From: an uncultured Cyclobacteriaceae bacterium | GTDB taxonomy: Bacteria; Bacteroidota; Bacteroidia; Cytophagales; Cyclobacteriaceae | DNA: 64,000 bases | Direction: 5' to 3' | NCBI GenBank assembly: GCA_966095315.1 | Contig: CBHTSG010000009.1 | Location: 29,082 to 93,081, forward strand | Shown: piece after piece, positions 52,890 through 62,119 of the stretch | Position numbering within the stretch: position 1 is the stretch's first letter | Layout of the letters: every line of letters begins with the position of its first letter | Notes under the pieces: model-generated | The model's input: only the letters and a program-made list of their open reading frames with translations | Databases searched by the model: none | What the model was told of the DNA's origin: nothing | Position numbers and translations under genes: made by a program

Positions 52890-53743
52890 TGAAAAAAGGT
52901 TTCACCATTCTTATTTTATTTCTGGCAGACTGCTTTTCGTTAGCGGCTCAAAATGATTCTTTACATTTTGCCACATCAATTTGGGAAGTAAAAAGATTAA
53001 CACGCGGAGTTGAGAAGAAAACTATTCACTTCGACTCAGATCTCTTCCATTCCAGCCAAAATATTTCGATCGTTTCCGTAAAAAAGAAAAAGAGAATTTT
53101 TGCGATTGGATATGAGGCAAAAGAATTAAAAATCACCAGTGAATTTGGAAAAGCACATCGCGCACTTGCGGCAATCAACGGAACATTCTTCGATACAAAA
53201 AATGGTGGCTCGGTTGATTATCTCCGAATGGATGGTAAAGTGATCAGCGAAAACACATTGCTCAAATCCGGTGCTCGTGCAGTCCATCAAAAGGCAGCCA
53301 TCATAATCAAAAAGGGCAGATTGGAAATCAGCAAGTGGAATGGCCTTGACGATTGGGAAGCCAAAATCGAAGGCGATGAGGTAATGAATTCAGGGCCGCT
53401 GCTGATTGAAGATAGAATATCTCAAAAGTTGGATTCTTCTGGTTTTACGTTCACACGACACCCACGATCAGCAATTGCCACTACTAGGCGTCACGTCTTG
53501 CTCATCACCATCGATGGCCGAAATGAAAATGCCGCAGGAATGAATCTCTACGAACTACAATCCATCATGCGTTGGCTTAATGCAAAAGATGCCATCAATT
53601 TGGACGGAGGGGGTTCCACCACATTGTGGATTGATGGCGAAGGAGTAATCAACTATCCAAGTGATAATAAACGATGGGATCACGAAGGTGAACGAAAAGT
53701 AGCCAATGTGATACTGGTAATGAAAGGCTCAAAGCGAAAGTAG
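52886..53743 (+). CDS. phosphodiester glycosidase (NAGPA-like) family protein
   Basis: AINGTFF, GPLL, RHPRSAI, DGR...A.GM, AINLDGGGSTT, ERKVAN. Signal peptide. Confidence 0.88.
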   Translation: MMKKGFTILILFLADCFSLAAQNDSLHFATSIWEVKRLTRGVEKKTIHFDSDLFHSSQNISIVSVKKKKRIFAIGYEAKELKITSEFGKAHRALAAINGTFFDTKNGGSVDYLRMDGKVISENTLLKSGARAVHQKAAIIIKKGRLEISKWNGLDDWEAKIEGDEVMNSGPLLIEDRISQKLDSSGFTFTRHPRSAIATTRRHVLLITIDGRNENAAGMNLYELQSIMRWLNAKDAINLDGGGSTTLWIDGEGVINYPSDNKRWDHEGERKVANVILVMKGSKRK

Positions 53744-55024
53744 ATATTCTTTCAGGCTTTCAAAGCGATCGCTCAATGGAGTACATTTTTTTTGTCTTGC
53801 TAAAAGTCTGCTAAGCCGTTCCGGGATTTCACAATCGATCCCTAACACATCATCTACCACCTCCTTAAATTTTGAAGGGTGAGCCGTTTCTAAAAACACA
53901 CCTGTACAATCCGGATTTTTATCCATGTAATTTTTCAATCCCAGATATCCGACAGCTCCATGTGGATCTAACATGTAAGCATCTTCGCGAAAAACGCTTA
54001 TCATCACATCTCGTGTTTCTTTATCCGAAAAAGAATACCCGGTAATCTCACTTCTAAAAGATTCCAGTTCCTCATGGTAAAGGGAGTTGAGCCTTGCAAA
54101 ATTGCTGGGGCTGCCAACATCCATTGCGTTGCTGATAGTGGTAACGGAAGGCCGCGCTTTGAATAATCCAGTGCTCAAAAATTCTGGAACAATGTCATTC
54201 TGGTTCGTTGCGGCTATAAACTTATGAACAGGCAATCCCATTCGCTTGGCCATCACGCCAGCGGTCAGATTCCCAAAATTACCGCTAGGAACAGAAACAA
54301 CGATTGGTCGGTCAGTCTTTATTTGAGCATAGGCACGGAAGTAGTAAAACATTTGCGGGATTAATCGCGCGATGTTAATTGAATTTGCAGACGTGAGAAA
54401 AAGCTTTGATGTGAGATCACGGTCAAGAAAGGCTTGCTTCACCACGCGCTGGCAATCATCAAACGAACCATTGATCTCTATCGCATGAATGTTTCCGCCA
54501 AGTGATGCAAATTGCATTTCTTGCAAAGCGCTCACTCGACCCTTTGGATACAGCACAACCACACGAGTGCCATTTACATTATAAAACCCGCTTGCCACTG
54601 CGCCTCCGGTATCGCCTGATGTGGCCACCAAAACCGTAATCTCACGATTCAGTTGCTGAGCGTAATGTGACATCACTGCGGAAAGAAATCTCGCACCAAA
54701 ATCTTTGAATGCTAATGTGGGTCCATGAAACAATTCAAACGCGAAAATATTTTCCTCAACGCTTTTTAGTGGAGCATCAAAAATGAGCGTGTGCTCAATG
54801 ATTGCCATTAATTCTTCGCGAGTGAAATCATCTTTCAAAAAAGCATTGGCAACCTCGAAGGATAATTCGCGAAATGATTTTCGATTTGCCTCCGAAAAAA
54901 AAGATTCAGGAAATTGTGGAATAGATTCAGGAAGATATAGGCCCTGATCATCGGCAAGCCCTTTTAATACTGCTGACCGAAAATCGACAAGATGTTTCTT
55001 ATTGTTGGTACTGAAATACTTCAT
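53729..55024 (-). CDS. thrC: threonine synthase
   Basis: ELFHGPTLAFKDFG, ATSGDTGGA, NSINIARL, VPSGNFGN, ETAHPSKF. Confidence 0.97.
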   Translation of the reverse strand: MKYFSTNNKKHLVDFRSAVLKGLADDQGLYLPESIPQFPESFFSEANRKSFRELSFEVANAFLKDDFTREELMAIIEHTLIFDAPLKSVEENIFAFELFHGPTLAFKDFGARFLSAVMSHYAQQLNREITVLVATSGDTGGAVASGFYNVNGTRVVVLYPKGRVSALQEMQFASLGGNIHAIEINGSFDDCQRVVKQAFLDRDLTSKLFLTSANSINIARLIPQMFYYFRAYAQIKTDRPIVVSVPSGNFGNLTAGVMAKRMGLPVHKFIAATNQNDIVPEFLSTGLFKARPSVTTISNAMDVGSPSNFARLNSLYHEELESFRSEITGYSFSDKETRDVMISVFREDAYMLDPHGAVGYLGLKNYMDKNPDCTGVFLETAHPSKFKEVVDDVLGIDCEIPERLSRLLARQKKCTPLSDRFESLKEYLLSL

Positions 55025-55959
55025 GGTAATAAATTTTCGGTGCGTGCCCCGGTAAGGTTAATTTTAGAATGATGAACTTCACTTGCTAATCCACAATTGA
55101 CAAAGTGTAATTTAGCGCTGGCCCCAGCACGGTGCGAGCTTTGCTCATCAGCGCTGAGTGCAAACATGGTAGGCCCGGAGCCAGAGATGCCGCACCCTAA
55201 TGCTCCCGCCTCAATCATTACTTTTTTGCATTCTTCAAAACCAGGAATGAATACCGAACGTGAAGGTTCTACCAGCACATCTTTCAGCGATCTTCCAATC
55301 AGTGAATAGTCGGGTTGCATCAATCCCACCATTAGACCTGCAATATTACCGGCTTGAGCAATGGCGTCTTGCAATCTGACCACAGGCTTGAGTACACGCC
55401 TGGAATCCTCCGTTTTTATTTCCATCATTGGGTGAATTAATGTACAGAATAGTTGTGCCGCAACGGGAATCTGCACGATGTCCAACGGATGATAATCTTT
55501 TATCAAAACGCATCCGCCCAGCAATGAAGGAGCAACATTATCGGCATGAGCTGAACCGCAGGCGACTCGTTCGGCTTCCATGGCATGTGGTATTAATTCC
55601 GTCCGGGATAGTGGACTACCGAGCAACTGATTAATTGCTACCAATGCAGCTGCTGCGCTTGCCGCACTGGATCCCATCCCACTTCCAAGGGGTAATTTTT
55701 TTATCAATTCAATTTCAGCACCGCCATGATGTCCTTGCGAATGCAAAAAAGATAGTACCGCAACACTTGCAGTGTTCTTTGTAGGTTCTAACGGCAGCCT
55801 GCCTTCATCACCGCGTATCGACTTCACTACAACACCCGGCTCTTCCACCAGTGTCACAATCACTTCATCTTCTGGTGCATCAACAGCAAATCCCAACACA
55901 TCAAAACCGCAGCACACATTCGCCACAGTAGCGGGTGCAAAAGCTTTTATGGATCTCAT
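55021..55959 (-). CDS. thrB: homoserine kinase
   Basis: APATVANVCCGFDVLG, LPLGSGMGSSAASA, HADNVAP, ISGSGPT. Start placed at MRSIKAF. Confidence 0.96.
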   Translation of the reverse strand: MRSIKAFAPATVANVCCGFDVLGFAVDAPEDEVIVTLVEEPGVVVKSIRGDEGRLPLEPTKNTASVAVLSFLHSQGHHGGAEIELIKKLPLGSGMGSSAASAAAALVAINQLLGSPLSRTELIPHAMEAERVACGSAHADNVAPSLLGGCVLIKDYHPLDIVQIPVAAQLFCTLIHPMMEIKTEDSRRVLKPVVRLQDAIAQAGNIAGLMVGLMQPDYSLIGRSLKDVLVEPSRSVFIPGFEECKKVMIEAGALGCGISGSGPTMFALSADEQSSHRAGASAKLHFVNCGLASEVHHSKINLTGARTENLLP

Positions 55960-55963
55960 ATTT

Positions 55964-58420
55964 TTAATTTGAATAATTTCCAATTCGAATGATATCTGCA
56001 AACACGCCTGCTGCGGTAACAGTGGCCCCCGCACCCGGACCACGGATTACCATGGGGCGTTCATGATACCGGTTGGTTGAAATTAAAATGACATTATCAC
56101 TTCCGGAAAGAGAATAAAACGGATGAGATGCATCTACCCGCACCAACGAAACTTTCACTTTACCTTTTTCGATGGTAGCACTGTAGCGAAGCTTAAGGCC
56201 CTCCGCCTCGGCTTGGTTTTTCATTGCATCAAAATAATGGTCATGATGCTGAAGCTGTTTGAAAAATAGCTCAGTGCTCAGCTCTCCGCGACAATCTTCT
56301 GGCACCAGATTATCCACTTCGATATCAGTGAGTTCAATGGCATTCCCAATTTCTCTTGAGAGTATCAGAGCTTTGCGAGCCACATCCATACCATTGAGAT
56401 CATCGCGTGGATCAGGTTCGGTGAATCCTTTCTCCTTTGCGAGCCTCACGATCTCACTAAACTTTGCATCTCCCTGAAGCGATGAGAAGATAAAATTCAA
56501 TGTTCCACTCAATACCGCCTCAATTCGAATGATTTTATCGCCACTGATTTGTAAATCATTCAGCGTATTTATTACCGGCAGGCCGGCACCTACGTTTGTT
56601 TCATAAAAGAATTTTACACCTCTTCGGGAAACAGATTTTCGAATCTGACGATATTTTTCAAGGGCACCGGAATTTGCTTTCTTATTTGGAGTAACAACCG
56701 AAATATTTGCTTCTAAAATTTCTGAATAATAGTCAGTAAGATGCTCACTTGATGTGCAATCGACAAAAATGCTATTGGACAAATTCATATCGATCATTCT
56801 TTTGATAAAATCATCAAGCCGCATTGGTTCGCCTGTCGATTTCATCAGGTCGATTGAAGCCTTCGAGAGTGACAAGCCTCCTTCATCAAAAATCATTTTA
56901 GTTGAATTAGCGATACCCAGCAGATTAATTTCAATGTCTGTGTTCTCAGAAAGATTATTGAACTCCTCTCCCATCATATGAAGGAGCTCCGATCCAATGA
57001 GCCCAGTACCAATCAGAAAAATATTCAACGCCTTTTTGTCAGAAAGGAAGAAGGCTTCATGCAGTGAATTCAGTGCTTTGCTTACATCACTTTGCCGAAT
57101 AACAGCGGAGATATTGAGCTCTGACGATCCCTGAGCAATTGCCTGAACATTAATACCATTTTTTCCCAGTGTTACAAACATGCGTCCGCTAGTGCCAGGG
57201 TTGTGCTTCATATTTTCACCAACAATCGCAATAATCGCTAAATCATTTTCAATGATCACTTCGTCCATTTCCTTACTCTTAATTTCATACTGAAATTCCG
57301 ACTCAATGGCGGACTTGGCTCTTGCTGCGTAAGCACTTTCAATGGCAAAGCAAATGGAGTGCTCTGAAGAAGCCTGACTGATAAGTATTACGTTGATTCG
57401 TTCACGTGCAAGAGCTTCGAACAGGCGCATGGAGACACCAACCACTCCTAATAATCCACTGCCTTGAACATTTAACAAACTCACATTCATTACTGAAGAA
57501 ATCCCCTTGATGATCAAGTTTTTTCCATTGCCCTTTGCATTGATGAGCGTGCCGGCAAACTCCGGGTTGAATGTATTTTTAATGAGGATTGGAATTCCGT
57601 TAATCATAGCAGGCTGCATCGTAGCCGGAAAAATCACTTTTGCCCCGAAGTGTGAAAGCTCCATCGCTTCTTCATAAGACATTTCATGAACGGTGAAGGC
57701 TTTCTTTACCTTACGGGGATCAGCGGTCATCATCCCATCCACATCGGTCCATATCTCCAGCACTTCTGCTTGCAAAGCCCCGGCAAATATTGCTGCGGTG
57801 TAATCCGATCCACTCCTGCCCAGCGTAGTGGTTTCGCCTTCGGGAGAACTCGCAATAAACCCTGTAATAACCTGCAACCCCTTTGCTGCACTGAAGTAAT
57901 CTTGAATTCTCCGATTAGTAATTTCGAAATTCACTTTTGCGTGATTGAACTGACTATCCGTCACAATCACCTGTCGGGCATCGAGGTAATAAGCATCTAT
58001 GCCAGATACCTTAAAGGCTTCCGAGATAATCAGTGCCGAAAGTCGCTCGCCAAAACTCATGATGTAATCGAGCGATCGCGGTGTGCGCTCTTTGATCAGG
58101 AATATTCCATGAAGAATGTCATCAAGTTCATTGATGAGCACTTTTACTTTTGCCAGCACATGACTTTGATTTTGAATCGGTATGAGTTCACGCACGCTAT
58201 CTAAGTGACGTTTCTCTATAGCTTCCAATTGCAACTTGTATTGATCATTCCCCGAAAGGGCTAATGCACTTGTACTGATAAGTTGATCCGTTACACCACC
58301 AAAAGCAGAGAAAACAACCGCCATCGAATCGCTCGACAATCGTGCTTTTATGATGCTGATAATACTTTTTATTCGTTCGGGCTTTGCAACAGAAGAGCCA
58401 CCAAATTTTATAATTTTCAT
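55964..58420 (-). CDS. thrA: bifunctional aspartokinase / homoserine dehydrogenase I
   Basis: KFGGSSV, LGRSGSDY, WTDVDG, two ACT repeats, G.GLIG, TPNKKA, YETNVGAGLP, GPGAG...TAAGVFAD. Confidence 0.97.
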   Translation of the reverse strand: MKIIKFGGSSVAKPERIKSIISIIKARLSSDSMAVVFSAFGGVTDQLISTSALALSGNDQYKLQLEAIEKRHLDSVRELIPIQNQSHVLAKVKVLINELDDILHGIFLIKERTPRSLDYIMSFGERLSALIISEAFKVSGIDAYYLDARQVIVTDSQFNHAKVNFEITNRRIQDYFSAAKGLQVITGFIASSPEGETTTLGRSGSDYTAAIFAGALQAEVLEIWTDVDGMMTADPRKVKKAFTVHEMSYEEAMELSHFGAKVIFPATMQPAMINGIPILIKNTFNPEFAGTLINAKGNGKNLIIKGISSVMNVSLLNVQGSGLLGVVGVSMRLFEALARERINVILISQASSEHSICFAIESAYAARAKSAIESEFQYEIKSKEMDEVIIENDLAIIAIVGENMKHNPGTSGRMFVTLGKNGINVQAIAQGSSELNISAVIRQSDVSKALNSLHEAFFLSDKKALNIFLIGTGLIGSELLHMMGEEFNNLSENTDIEINLLGIANSTKMIFDEGGLSLSKASIDLMKSTGEPMRLDDFIKRMIDMNLSNSIFVDCTSSEHLTDYYSEILEANISVVTPNKKANSGALEKYRQIRKSVSRRGVKFFYETNVGAGLPVINTLNDLQISGDKIIRIEAVLSGTLNFIFSSLQGDAKFSEIVRLAKEKGFTEPDPRDDLNGMDVARKALILSREIGNAIELTDIEVDNLVPEDCRGELSTELFFKQLQHHDHYFDAMKNQAEAEGLKLRYSATIEKGKVKVSLVRVDASHPFYSLSGSDNVILISTNRYHERPMVIRGPGAGATVTAAGVFADIIRIGNYSN

Positions 58421-58457
58421 AAACAGAAATAAATTAAAAGGCTTAGAAATTGAATGC

Positions 58458-58535
58458 TTGATTGGCAATCAACTCCTGGAGTAGTTGCCATCAACAGTGA
58501 TCGGGTAATATGGTGGCGATGACGGGTTACCCCGT
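58458..58535 (-). promoter_or_regulatory. putative thr operon attenuator (alternative RNA helices)
   Basis: Minus strand: ACGGG-GTAA-CCCGT over the leader stop; GTCATC/GATGGC alternative helix; TTGATGGCAA...TTGCCAATCAA hairpin. Confidence 0.65.
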
Positions 58536-58628
58536 AATGGTTGTTGTAGTAATGATCGAAGCAAAGCAAGCCACTGTTTCAATTGCTGAAACAGTCTTTG
58601 AAGTGATTGAATTGGCTTGGTGATTCAT
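58527..58628 (-). CDS. thrL: thr operon leader peptide (33 aa, MNHQANSITSKTVSAIETVACFASIITTTTITG)
   Basis: Ends IITTTTIT. 8 Thr + 5 Ile of 33 residues, 106 nt upstream of thrA on the same strand. Confidence 0.75.
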   Translation of the reverse strand: MNHQANSITSKTVSAIETVACFASIITTTTITG

Positions 58629-58635
58629 TACGCTG

Positions 58636-58666
58636 CAAATAATCTTTTTCAATGATGTATTGCAAA
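58636..58666 (-). promoter_or_regulatory. putative sigma70 promoter for the thr leader (TTTG-N19-ATTATTTG)
   Basis: Near-consensus -33/-7 boxes ending 7 nt before the leader ATG. Confidence 0.5.
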
Positions 58667-58727
58667 GTTTTTTTGTGATTTTTGTGCGACTAAAACACAA
58701 ACGAACACTTAGTAGGAACATAAAATT

Positions 58728-59249
58728 ATGCCACGCAAGAAAAAATCTCCACGCGAATCATTCGTCAGTATGACTGAGTTGGTATTACCCAACGACACTA
58801 ACACACTGAATAATTTAATGGGTGGCCGCTTAATGCATTGGATGGATATTGTGTCGGCAATCGCGGCACAAAAGCACGCCAATCGAATTGTAGTAACTGC
58901 TTCGGTGGATAATATATCGTTTCGTCAATCCATTCAACTTGGAAACGTGGTGACACTAAAAGCCAGAGTGACGCGTGCATTCAACTCTTCGATGGAGGTA
59001 AGAATTGATGTGGAAGCGGAAGACATACCTGCTAATAAAAAATTCTCAAGCAATAGTGCGTACCTGACTTTTGTAGCGGTTGACCAAAATGGCCAGCCCA
59101 TTGATGTGCCTGAAGTTGAACCAGAAACTGCGGAAGAAAAAGAATTATACGAGGGCGCACTTCGCAGAAGACAACTTCGTCTGATTTTAGCAGGAAGAAT
59201 GAAACCGAGTGAAGCCAATGAATTAAAATCTATTTTCGATATCAAATAG
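58728..59249 (+). CDS. acyl-CoA thioesterase (HotDog fold, YciA-like)
   Basis: VLPNDTN.L.NLMGG.LMHWMD, VTASVD...F, TRAF.SSMEV, AYLTFVAVD. Confidence 0.92.
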   Translation: MPRKKKSPRESFVSMTELVLPNDTNTLNNLMGGRLMHWMDIVSAIAAQKHANRIVVTASVDNISFRQSIQLGNVVTLKARVTRAFNSSMEVRIDVEAEDIPANKKFSSNSAYLTFVAVDQNGQPIDVPEVEPETAEEKELYEGALRRRQLRLILAGRMKPSEANELKSIFDIK

Positions 59250-59736: not shown

Positions 59737-62037
59737 ATGCAAACATTATTGTACTCGTTGCCCCTGTTCGGAGTATTGGGGTTGTTGTATGTCGTTTGGA
59801 AGAGTGCCTGGGTAGCCAAGCAAGATGAAGGAACCGACAAAATGAAAAAAATTGCCAGTCACATCGCTGAAGGTGCAATGGCGTTCCTCAAAGCAGAGTA
59901 TAAAATCCTCGCTATTTTCGTGGTGTGTGTGGCCGCCCTCCTTGCCTTCACTGCAAACCGCGAAACATCATCTCCTCTAGTTGGTCTGTCATTCGTACTT
60001 GGTGCCTTCTGTTCTGCCCTTGCCGGTTTCATCGGTATGAAGGTGGCAACAAAAGCAAACGTGCGGACTACTAACGCAGCGCGAACAAGCCTTGGCAAAG
60101 CTCTTGAAGTAGCTTTCACAGGCGGTTCAGTAATGGGTATGGGTGTTGTTGGTCTTGGCGTATTAGGATTGAGCACCCTCTTCATTGTGTACTCTAATAT
60201 TTATGGAGTTGACACACAAATGAATCTTAATCAGGTGATCACAATCATTACCGGCTTTTCATTTGGTGCATCATCCATTGCATTGTTTGCACGTGTTGGC
60301 GGTGGAATCTATACTAAAGCTGCTGACGTAGGTGCTGACCTTGTAGGTAAAGTAGAAGCTGGCATTCCTGAAGATCACCCGCTGAACCCTGCAACCATTG
60401 CAGACAACGTGGGTGACAACGTAGGTGACGTAGCTGGTATGGGTGCCGATTTGTTTGAATCCTATGTAGGCTCGATTGTGGGTACCATGGTATTAGGTGC
60501 TGCATTTATGGTACCTGGTTTTACTGATGCTTATAATGGTCTTTCAGCAGTTCTTCTTCCGTTGGTATTGGCGGGAGTTGGTATCATCATGTCCTTCTTG
60601 GGAACTTTTTTCGTGAGAGTAAAAGAAGGTGGCGATCCTCAAAAAGCATTGAACACAGGCGAAATTGTTTCTTCATTAATAATGATCATCGCCTCATGGT
60701 TCATCATCAAAGGAATGCTTCCCAACGAATGGTGGTTCCAGGATCCACTCTATGCTTGGAGTGATCCTGAAAAAGGTAATTTGTATACGTCTACCGGTGT
60801 GTTCATTGCAACAGTGATTGGACTTGTTGCCGGTGTGGTGATTGGTTTGATTACCGAGTACTATACAGGCATGGGTAAAAAGCCGGTGCTTTCGATTGTA
60901 AGGCAATCGTCAACAGGCGCTGCTACCAACATTATTGCAGGTCTTGGTGTGGGCATGATGTCAACGATGTGGCCGATCATCATCATTGCTATCTCTATCA
61001 TTGGAGCCTTCCAGTTTGGAGGATTATATGGTATTGCAATCGCAGCAGTGGGTATGTTATCAAATCTTGGTATTCAATTAGCCGTGGATGCTTACGGACC
61101 AATCTCTGACAATGCCGGTGGTATTGCCGAGATGTCGGAGCTTCCAAAAGATGTTCGTTCTAAAACTGATAAGCTTGATGCTGTAGGTAACACTACAGCA
61201 GCTATTGGTAAAGGTTTTGCGATTGCTTCTGCAGCGCTTACTGCACTTGCTTTGTTTGGCGCCTTCATGACAACAGCTCACCTGAAATCAATCGATGTAT
61301 CGAAGGCGAACGTGATGGCGGGATTATTCATCGGTGGAATGTTGCCTTTTGTATTCTCCGCTTTGGCGATGGGTGCCGTAGGTCGTGCCGCCATGTCAAT
61401 GATTGAGGAAGTGCGCAGACAATTCAGTGACATCCCTGCCCTGAAAGCCGCTCTTGCGGTAATGAAGAAAAATGGTGAGAAGGAAATGAGCGAATGGTCT
61501 GCAGAGGATCAGAAAACTTTCCATGATGCAGACGGAAAAGCAGAGTACGGAAAGTGTGTTGAAATCTCAACCAAGGCTGCAATCAGAGAAATGGTTGTGC
61601 CTGGATTGATGGCTGTAATTGTGCCAGTTGTAATTGCTTTCCTACCCGGTTTTGGTGTTGAGGCTTTGGGTGGAATGCTTGCTGGTGTTACCGTATCCGG
61701 TGTATTGATGGCGATCTTCCAATCAAATGCTGGTGGCGCGTGGGATAATGCCAAGAAGAGCTTTGAAGAAGGCGTTGAGATCAATGGACAGAAATACTTT
61801 AAGAAATCAGAGCCTCATAAAGCTGCGGTTGTTGGTGATACTGTTGGAGATCCATTTAAGGATACCTCTGGTCCATCATTGAACATCTTGCTGAAATTAA
61901 TGTCAGTAGTAGCGTTGGTCATTGCTCCTTTCCTTGTACCTGCAAATGAGGGCACTGCTAAAGTGGAGGAGCCAAAAGCAAAAATTGAAGTTGTTAGCTC
62001 AACTCCTAAAACCACTGAGACTGTTCCAGCTCAGTAG
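59737..62037 (+). CDS. hppA: membrane-bound ion-translocating pyrophosphatase, K+-dependent type
   Basis: [67 protein letters not shown]. Confidence 0.97.
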
Positions 62038-62060
62038 CCATTTAGATTAAGTTCCATAAG

Positions 62061-62094
62061 AAAAGAGTCACGAAAAATGCGTGACTCTTTTTTT
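62061..62094 (+). terminator. intrinsic terminator after hppA
   Basis: AAAAGAGTCACG-N7-CGTGACTCTTTTTTT. Confidence 0.9.
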
Positions 62095-62119
62095 GTTATT
62101 TTAGAAGCATCAAAACGTT

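Follow-up and report, generated by a model that had tools for sequence, protein, structure and literature searches.

A conserved threonine/isoleucine-rich leader open reading frame upstream of thrABC in Cytophagales and its candidate role in attenuation

Analysis of a 64,000-nucleotide stretch from an uncultured Cyclobacteriaceae bacterium (contig CBHTSG010000009.1 of assembly GCA_966095315.1, positions 29,082 to 93,081; the whole stretch is referred to as the window) revealed a short upstream open reading frame (uORF) rich in threonine and isoleucine codons directly before the threonine operon thrABC on the minus strand. Judged from its sequence conservation in related Cytophagales, this uORF is a real element and no chance feature. 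It very likely encodes a leader peptide through which the supply of threonine and isoleucine is sensed. We regard the leader as a thrL-like regulator of thrABC acting by the mechanism favoured below, a reading that we hold to be somewhat likelier right than wrong when taken as a whole. The sensing half of such a regulator, the codon run and the hairpin at the stop codon, is unmistakable, while the classical output half is missing. A first-pass annotation of this DNA had proposed ribosome-mediated attenuation in a Bacteroidota lineage; the part that stands, at the level of sequence comparison, is a predicted Thr/Ile leader peptide controlling thrABC, and the part that does not is the classical helix switch. 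The coding features are as follows.

58527-58628, minus strand: leader peptide uORF of 33 codons plus TAA, encoding MNHQANSITSKTVSAIETVACFASIITTTTITG, with the ATG at 58628 and the TAA at 58529-58527
58533-58556, minus strand: regulatory codon run ATC ATT ACT ACA ACA ACC ATT ACG (IITTTTIT), in which synonymous codons vary among relatives and the amino acids are kept

The 33-codon uORF at 58628-58527, ending in IITTTTITG and a stop, is thus present where it had been annotated. Its codon run contains no G except the third base of the final ACG, which is part of the G-box described below. Scanning of genomes with the ThrA protein gave 80 loci from Cyclobacteriaceae, Ohtaekwangia/Chryseolinea-like lineages, Algoriphagus and relatives, 78 of them with sufficient upstream sequence. 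A Thr/Ile-rich short open reading frame (ORF) ending in ATT ACG GGG TAA/TGA/TAG precedes thrA in about 74 of these 78 loci, where ThrA is only 55-71% identical. A metagenome scan with the pattern AYNATTACGGGGTRACCCGT, which itself requires the helix over the stop codon (helix 1:2), returned 109 hits, about 105 of them equivalent uORFs and four unrelated; a recognisable thrA start lies 73-212 nt downstream of the uORF stop in at least 98 hits. Conservation of such uORFs upstream of thrA in related Cytophagales, which the first-pass annotation had proposed to look for, was therefore found in both collections. It occurs widely in Cytophagales, in samples of soil, rhizosphere and wastewater as well as in aquatic ones. 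Cultivable carriers of this leader include Ohtaekwangia koreensis DSM 25262 (L031), Chryseosolibacter indicus (L029) and Chryseolinea sp. H1M3-3 (L038), with Algoriphagus species standing for group C as defined below. The single Sphingobacteriales locus (L076, Anseongella) has no such uORF, and the protein search with ThrA returned only relatives that are 68-72% identical, leaving other Bacteroidota classes out of its reach.

The leaders found were sorted into groups A, B and C. Group A, which includes the window and about 100 distinct sequences, has the stop codon in a GUAA/GUGA loop, followed by CCCGU, a C-rich spacer and a hairpin with the apex YUC-MAG-GAR. Group B has a UAG stop, C(G/U)CCC, a nearly G-free spacer, a T-run and then a variable hairpin, with one subgroup using a GTG start for the uORF. 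Group C (Algoriphagus-like) has UCCCGU, GUACCCGCCCC and then a short GC hairpin with a U-rich tail.

Analysis of the 12 codons before ACG-GGG-stop in groups A and B revealed a Thr+Ile fraction of 0.68 in frame versus 0.01-0.03 in the other frames; for 96 group-A sequences the values were 0.68 in frame and 0.01 in the other two. Every threonine codon and both common isoleucine codons occur in the regulatory run, which indicates that selection acts on codon identity, as a regulatory leader peptide would lead one to expect. These results bear on an alternative in which the uORF is no sensor and either encodes a small hydrophobic peptide with a function of its own or is an incidental frame in an untranslated structured RNA. 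The dense RNA structure of the leader (helix P0, an inner uORF hairpin and hairpins P1 and P3, all described below) would suit that alternative, as would the conservation of the P1 sequence and the P3 apex, which resembles that of a ligand or protein site. We nevertheless consider it very improbable. Nearly all loci retain the frame, the stop and an ATG or GTG start despite uORF lengths of 17 to about 48 codons (genome loci), and the sole conserved feature of the peptide is Thr/Ile codon identity with free synonymous choice, its N-terminal MQA...AC conservation being explained by P0 pairing. Furthermore, the element is always linked to thrA, and the methionine codons swapped in by one clade fit the logic of the pathway.

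Upstream of the uORF, two promoter elements of the Bacteroidota type were located.

58663-58666, minus strand: -33-like promoter element TTTG; TTTG/TTGG is kept at this site in most group-A relatives
58636-58642, minus strand: -7-like promoter element TTATTTG (family consensus TTATTTCG), 20 nt past TTTG and 7 nt before the ATG

The near-consensus promoter described earlier, with an ATG 7 nt after it, was confirmed (TTTG at 58666-58663, TTATTTG at 58642-58636). It follows the layout of the family, which is TTTG, about 20 nt and TTATTTCG; in the window the ATG follows the second element after 7 nt, as against 9-13 nt in most relatives. The transcription start site of Flavobacterium johnsoniae promoters lies 4-5 nt past the -7 element (PMC6847099), so that a 5' untranslated region (UTR) of about 1-3 nt is predicted for the window and one of 3-8 nt for the family. 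RNA data from two relatives are consistent with this. For L122 (group C, uORF ATG at position 222 of its locus), contigs assembled from several metatranscriptome or RNA-seq runs start at 218, 219, 224 and 245, with no RNA contig further upstream, and one contig spans 224-422, beyond the thrA ATG. For L086 (group A, uORF ATG at 171), RNA contigs start at 177 and 189, none lies upstream and one enters thrA. The contigs of both loci fit transcription that begins with the uORF or just ahead of it, and show that read-through transcripts exist. Promoter spacing and these contigs together suggest a transcription start at or a few nt from the uORF AUG, in keeping with the earlier description of a nearly leaderless messenger RNA (mRNA). 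A sigma-70 promoter and terminator scan, which is poorly suited to this phylum, picked up nothing but the inner uORF hairpin and P1 on its reverse strand. In the group-B subgroup formed by L005, L009-L013, L019, L020, L022, L026 and L043, the uORF has no in-frame ATG and an apparent conserved GTG start. Several of these GTG-start members carry a three-codon mini-ORF, AUG AAA UAA, beside the predicted transcription start.

The 5' end of this mRNA takes part in a conserved long-range helix, P0, formed by the following elements.

58614-58619, minus strand: P0 5' strand CAAGCC, near the mRNA 5' end, which pairs with GGCTTG in minimum-energy folds
58567-58572, minus strand: P0 3' strand GGCTTG, which encodes the conserved Ala-Cys of the peptide
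58573-58595, minus strand: inner uORF hairpin ACTGTTTCA-GCAAT-TGAAACAGT, with a hairpin at the same site in relatives and a covariation signal (orfmid-AC)

P0 joins the very start of the mRNA, in many cases with the AUG (AUGCAAGC...GCUUGCAU), to the middle of the uORF and encloses the inner hairpin. The partner in relatives is a GCUUGC-type segment about 55-70 nt downstream, and lineage-specific compensatory versions occur, namely AUGAAAGCAGG.../...CCUGCU, AUGAACGCAAGCC/GGCUUGUUCGUUCAU, ACAGGC/GCCUGU and others. Alignment-free comparison of cognate and non-cognate duplex energies gave a z of about -6 for P0. The pairing explains the conserved 'MQA...AC' of the leader peptides. P0 may well restrict initiation at the uORF to a short time window during transcription, until the middle of the uORF has been made. 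P0, the inner hairpin and C-box 2 are, as far as sequence comparison goes, conserved features beyond the architecture described in the first-pass annotation.

At the end of the uORF, the stop codon lies in a hairpin whose 5' arm has two complementary partners.

58522-58535, minus strand: P1 hairpin, composed of the G-box ACGGG (58535-58531), the loop GUAA with the stop codon and C-box 1 CCCGU (58526-58522)
58502-58508, minus strand: C-box 2 (TTACCCG), complementary to the G-box and stop codon (CGGG-G-UAA)

P1 corresponds to helix 1:2 of the earlier description (ACGGG-GTAA-CCCGT), which was found as described. Its five pairs are invariant in 95 distinct sequences, an invariance that in the metagenome members is built in by the search pattern and is uninformative on pairing as such; its pairing probability in free RNA is 0.81 (unconstrained folds). 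The loop is of the GNRA type in the UAA and UGA families and different in the UAG family, which still keeps the hairpin. A P1 variant, GGGC/GCCC, was found in L057. Complementarity of the G-box to the real spacer versus shuffled spacers was -9.25 versus -7.50 kcal/mol for group A, -8.09 versus -6.64 for group B and -9.78 versus -6.81 for group C. The need of the G-box to pair with two partners and to encode Thr-Gly-stop would explain its frozen sequence. The Ohtaekwangia metagenome-assembled genome L032 has ACGGGGGTAAACCCGTG with one extra G, which shifts the frame so that its uORF ends five codons later (..ITGVNP and stop); the cause is either an assembly error in a homopolymer or natural variation, in which case the stop codon has lost its place in the loop. 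An extension of P1 into the codon run was rejected, its pairing being no better than non-cognate. Comparison of cognate with non-cognate duplex energies likewise gave no signal for the uORF segments with C-box 2, the C-boxes with the P3 3' arm, the Thr/Ile run with the P3 arms, or the mRNA 5' end with the region after C-box 1, where a UGCAU motif recurs.

Downstream of the spacer lies the hairpin that had been described as helix 3:4.

58458-58494, minus strand: P3 hairpin (3:4), with arms TTGATGGCAA (58494-58485) and TTGCCAATCAA (58468-58458), supported by covariance-model match and covariation
58476-58478, minus strand: triloop of the P3 apex CUC-CAG-GAG

P3 is present at these positions and its conservation as a structure is well supported. 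A covariance model built from 40 seeds matches the window at 58451-58540 with 50.2 bits and 97 loci, and compensatory changes occur at 14 of the 15 P3 pairs in the covariance-model alignment. The covariation score is 0.337 versus 0.145 in shuffles (none of 500 reaches it) and at most 0.094 with slid partners; anchoring on the apex gave covarying pairs with, for example, counts of 53 CG and 33 UA at one position and 41 AU and 23 GC at another. RNAalifold on MAFFT alignments recovered P1 and the P3 apex only, the lower P3 stem requiring the covariance-model alignment. The P3 apex is also kept in sequence, as a C/A-A-G triloop closed by C-G and U-A (UC-MAG-GA). Its 3' side contains a Shine-Dalgarno-like AGGAG paired with CUCC. 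Ribosomes of Bacteroidota largely ignore Shine-Dalgarno sequences. A window-only alternative hairpin, AGGAGUUGA...UCAAUUUCU (closed by GGC/GCC and followed by UUUUAAUUUAUUU), rivals P3 in the window and was rejected as not conserved.

The third helix of the earlier description, 2:3, fared differently. It can be drawn in the window where it had been placed, between GTCATC (58523-58518) and GATGGC (58492-58487), but is specific to the window and no better than chance: across 95 relatives it shows no covariation, and its duplex energy is -2.39 kcal/mol for cognate versus -2.44 kcal/mol for non-cognate pairs. The proposed search for covarying helices in relatives therefore had a split result, with clear covariation for 3:4 and no signal for 2:3. 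The effect of ribosome position was analysed by folding 91 full leaders while masking the footprint of a ribosome stalled early, stalled late or standing at the stop codon. P3 apex probabilities were 0.75, 0.72 and 0.74, respectively, and 0.74 in free RNA; the mean change in P3 across the family was -0.018. When the 13 nt past the stop are uncovered, P3 probability drops by 0.060, as against 0.056 with those 13 nt shuffled. P3 thus folds at any ribosome position in the relatives, and this, together with the lack of conservation of 2:3, does not sustain the 'complete attenuator-like architecture' that had been described.

These data weigh on classical ribosome-mediated intrinsic attenuation, in which 1:2 would form without stalling, 2:3 (GUCAUC:GAUGGC) would form when region 1 is covered and 3:4 would be the terminator. 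The expected direction is seen when the window is folded alone, with a P3 apex probability of 0.04 for a late-stalled ribosome and 0.36 for a ribosome at the stop; however, P3 in the window also competes with a non-conserved downstream hairpin. Also in favour of this scheme, the leaders L016, L087 and L110/L134 carry a U tract directly after P3, and the ilvE and hisG leaders of Flavobacterium use canonical terminators. Across the relatives, helix 2:3 is without covariation and weak in energy, real region 2 affects P3 in the same way as shuffled region 2, and a hairpin with a U tract occurs in only 3 of 106 group-A leaders. Since P3 is unchanged by ribosome position across the relatives, competition of classical helices is not the conserved mechanism, and we consider intrinsic attenuation unlikely.

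The absence of an immediate U tract after 3:4, already recognised in the first-pass annotation, holds across the family: besides those 3 leaders of the window's own group, a hairpin with U tract was found in 2 of 26 group-B and 10 of 41 group-C leaders. The 10-nt tail of the group-A hairpin contains 29% U (0.29) and 40% A. The earlier suggestion that the output of 3:4 is perhaps not classic intrinsic termination agrees with these counts, as no U tract or antiterminator is conserved. A textbook intrinsic terminator with a 17-bp stem and T-run occurs on the plus strand of the window at 62056-62096, after a 766-codon ORF (59737-62037), which shows that the organism does use canonical terminators. 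A terminator formed by the G-box with C-box 2 and the group-B T-run was considered and is not favoured, with stems of 4-7 bp, loops of 20-25 nt and an illogical arrangement for a ribosome at the stop.

The lack of a conserved antiterminator, the folding of P3 at any ribosome position and the missing U tract speak against the classical mechanism, and the missing U tract and antiterminator favour factor-dependent (Rho-type) termination. In the mechanism that we favour, a ribosome would load on the near-leaderless AUG during transcription of the leader, before closure of P0. Shortage of charged tRNA-Thr or tRNA-Ile would make it stall in the G-poor run, and thrABC would be transcribed; with a good supply it would reach the stop and leave, P0 and P1 would re-form, and transcription would end before thrA. 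The position of the ribosome would be read through the G-box and P1, the sole downstream element affected by a ribosome in the run or at the stop. The putative Rho loading site would consist of the G-poor Thr/Ile run and the C-rich spacer (about 78 nt, C/G = 2). Part of it would be covered by the stalled ribosome, and P3 would act as a pause hairpin, beyond which an A/U-rich stretch extends up to thrA. The C/G ratio in the window is 2.0 over positions -33 to +45, which is in the top 5% of 78-nt segments of the 64 kb, and P1 interrupts this stretch. We regard premature termination of transcription as the probable output, and termination by Rho through occlusion of its loading site as a tentative proposal that we would not lean on.

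A more speculative version, doubtful in our view though worth stating, is a ribosome-sensing attenuator without any terminator/antiterminator switch. The GGGG box in the last sense codons would be the sole element sensitive to the ribosome and would pair with either C-box, P0 would limit translation to the one ribosome that loads during transcription, and the read-out would be in trans, by Rho loading on the run and spacer and/or by contact of a factor or the polymerase with the UC-MAG-GA apex.

Several observations weigh against the favoured mechanism. The G-poor character of the run follows from its Thr/Ile codons and so provides no independent evidence for a Rho site, and a stalled ribosome leaves about 45 nt of the C-rich spacer free, so that occlusion would be only partial. 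The Rho model leaves the invariance of P1, the second C-box and the conserved P3 apex (UC-MAG-GA) unexplained; these three features hint at a further partner, for which a protein, the polymerase and a tertiary contact made by the P1 loop (GNRA-type) are candidates. Some members of groups B and C have hairpins with U-rich tails. In L019 and L041, C-box 1 (CUCCCGA / CCCGAU) can pair with a downstream CGCGGG that is directly followed by UUUUUU, which looks like a terminator using C-box 1 as its 5' arm and P1 as the antiterminator, with the classical roles reversed. The U-rich tails and the arrangement in L019 and L041 suggest that the output may differ between clades. The RNA contigs of the relatives are of low depth and about read length, and are unable to show termination. 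Finally, a search of sequencing runs for the window gave matches in soil and rhizosphere DNA runs only and none in RNA runs.

An alternative output is post-transcriptional. Stalling of the ribosome on the uORF, or its passage, would then alter translation of thrA or stability of the mRNA and not transcription, for example by opening and closing of P0 with an effect on 5'-end decay, or by an effect on structure near the thrA start. Start sites of Bacteroidota rely on an unstructured A-rich context and not on a Shine-Dalgarno sequence (PMC6847099), a property in keeping with this alternative, as are the sequestration of the 5' end and often the AUG by P0, the existence of RNA contigs reaching from the leader across the thrA start, and the lack of an evident terminator. 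However, when leader elements were compared with the segment from P3 to thrA and with the last 33 nt upstream of the thrA AUG, no conserved complementarity emerged (best z -2.1), the 75-110 nt from the uORF stop to the thrA start are far for coupling, and P0 opening is tied to thrA output by nothing. On this evidence a post-transcriptional output seems decidedly unlikely. A 'UCAAU' motif before thrA was set aside, as it occurs in only about one quarter of the relatives.

Variation in the amino acids of the run was found in group C. In L047-L080 of this group, and also in L082, L105, L117, L122 and others, the run has methionine and phenylalanine beside threonine (e.g. FFxMTTGMTTMITG). From the codons alone, this suggests that thrA of the Algoriphagus-like clade may respond to methionine supply as well, which fits a single aspartokinase/homoserine dehydrogenase serving both branches. 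A second short ORF of 24-31 codons, MKSS[MI]...II.N.ARFH..., is present just before thrA in L052, L066, L067 (two copies), L068, L072 and L074. In these Algoriphagus loci it may serve as an additional uORF or represent a small repeat element.

The operon downstream of the leader has the order thrA, thrB, thrC on the minus strand.

55964-58420, minus strand: thrA, bifunctional aspartate kinase / homoserine dehydrogenase I (NF006959, 1052 bits), with its ATG at 58420
55021-56043, minus strand: thrB, homoserine kinase, with a profile match from residue 33
53729-55024, minus strand: thrC, threonine synthase

As listed mechanically, the thrB ORF shares 80 nt (55964-56043) with the end of thrA. The homoserine kinase profile match starts at residue 33, so that the real thrB start probably lies later than 56043. 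A divergent gene for a YciA-like acyl-CoA thioesterase occupies 58728-59249 on the plus strand; its start is about 100 nt from the uORF ATG, which places both promoters within one short intergenic region. In the mechanical ORF list, the uORF is visible only as the tail of a 64-codon ORF that begins at an ATG 5' of the promoter. The first-pass annotation had described it as buried in a longer, TTG-started ORF.

The uORF merits annotation, and from the covariance model an RNA family could be started with which to annotate thr regulation across Bacteroidota genomes. Attenuation by leader peptides is a textbook matter that rests almost wholly on proteobacterial examples with an intrinsic terminator. 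If true, a switch-free attenuator with trans-factor read-out would be a design of amino-acid attenuation undescribed for biosynthetic operons and may be typical of Bacteroidota. The thr leader offers a tractable case for translation-transcription coupling and for translation of very short leaders in a phylum without Shine-Dalgarno-led initiation, and for the question of whether Rho or another factor replaces the terminator hairpin.

Comparison with enterobacterial thrL (Rfam Thr_leader RF00506) revealed likeness in the leader peptide with Thr/Ile codons directly 5' of thrABC, in the stop codon at a hairpin and in the presumed outcome that stalling turns the operon on. Unlike thrL, the Cytophagales leader is without a conserved antiterminator and a U-tract terminator, has a Bacteroidota-type promoter with a predicted 5' UTR of 1-8 nt, and has its 5' end paired with the middle of the uORF as well as a G-box with two C-boxes. 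Scanning 58300-58800 against Rfam with cmscan (both strands, E up to 10) gave 11 hits, all weak and unrelated, with Thr_leader RF00506, Bacteroid-trp and other leader families absent from these matches to the window leader. As the lineage is unrelated to enterobacteria, the thr leader of Cytophagales probably arose independently.

Literature search for a thr leader in Bacteroidota found none described in the papers searched. Vitreschak et al. in 2004 reportedly mentioned some attenuators in Bacteroidetes/Chlorobi, which may or may not include thr. Within the phylum, leader-peptide control has been proposed for trp (the Bacteroid-trp motif of Rfam) and for ilvE, hisG and trpE of Flavobacterium psychrophilum (PMC9723704), where the ilvE and hisG leaders end in strong hairpins, followed in ilvE by a long U tract (PMC9723704 supplement). 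Short ORFs 'reminiscent of leader peptides' are reported in Bacteroides thetaiotaomicron (PMC7366714). The thr leader shares with Bacteroid-trp and the F. psychrophilum leaders a uORF rich in end-product codons before a biosynthetic operon, all being computational or transcriptome-based predictions; it differs in operon and sequence, and in having no such terminator.

Other systems resemble the favoured mechanism in parts. The translation state of the leader ORFs of Escherichia coli tnaC and of Salmonella mgtL/mgtA and mgtCBR gates Rho-type termination at adjacent C-rich unstructured RNA. The thr leader would resemble these with its uORF beside a candidate C-rich loading stretch, and it too lacks an intrinsic terminator, the role of Rho here being a proposal. 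It is unlike them in that the signal would be charging of tRNA-Thr/Ile, in the biosynthetic nature of the operon, and in that no alternative structure hiding the C-rich region was detected in the thr leader. Mycobacterial polycysteine uORF attenuators are short leaderless ORFs, rich in end-product codons, that control biosynthetic genes. A short ORF with end-product codons before biosynthetic genes is common to both, its near-leaderless state in the thr leader being predicted, while phylum and amino acid are different; to our knowledge, a structured 5' helix including the AUG is no feature of the mycobacterial attenuators. Overall, the sensing principle of the Cytophagales thr leader is ordinary when set beside these systems, and what is unusual is its architecture: the uORF is probably near-leaderless, the 5' end is paired, the G-box has two complementary C-boxes, and the hairpin that folds autonomously lacks a terminator tail.

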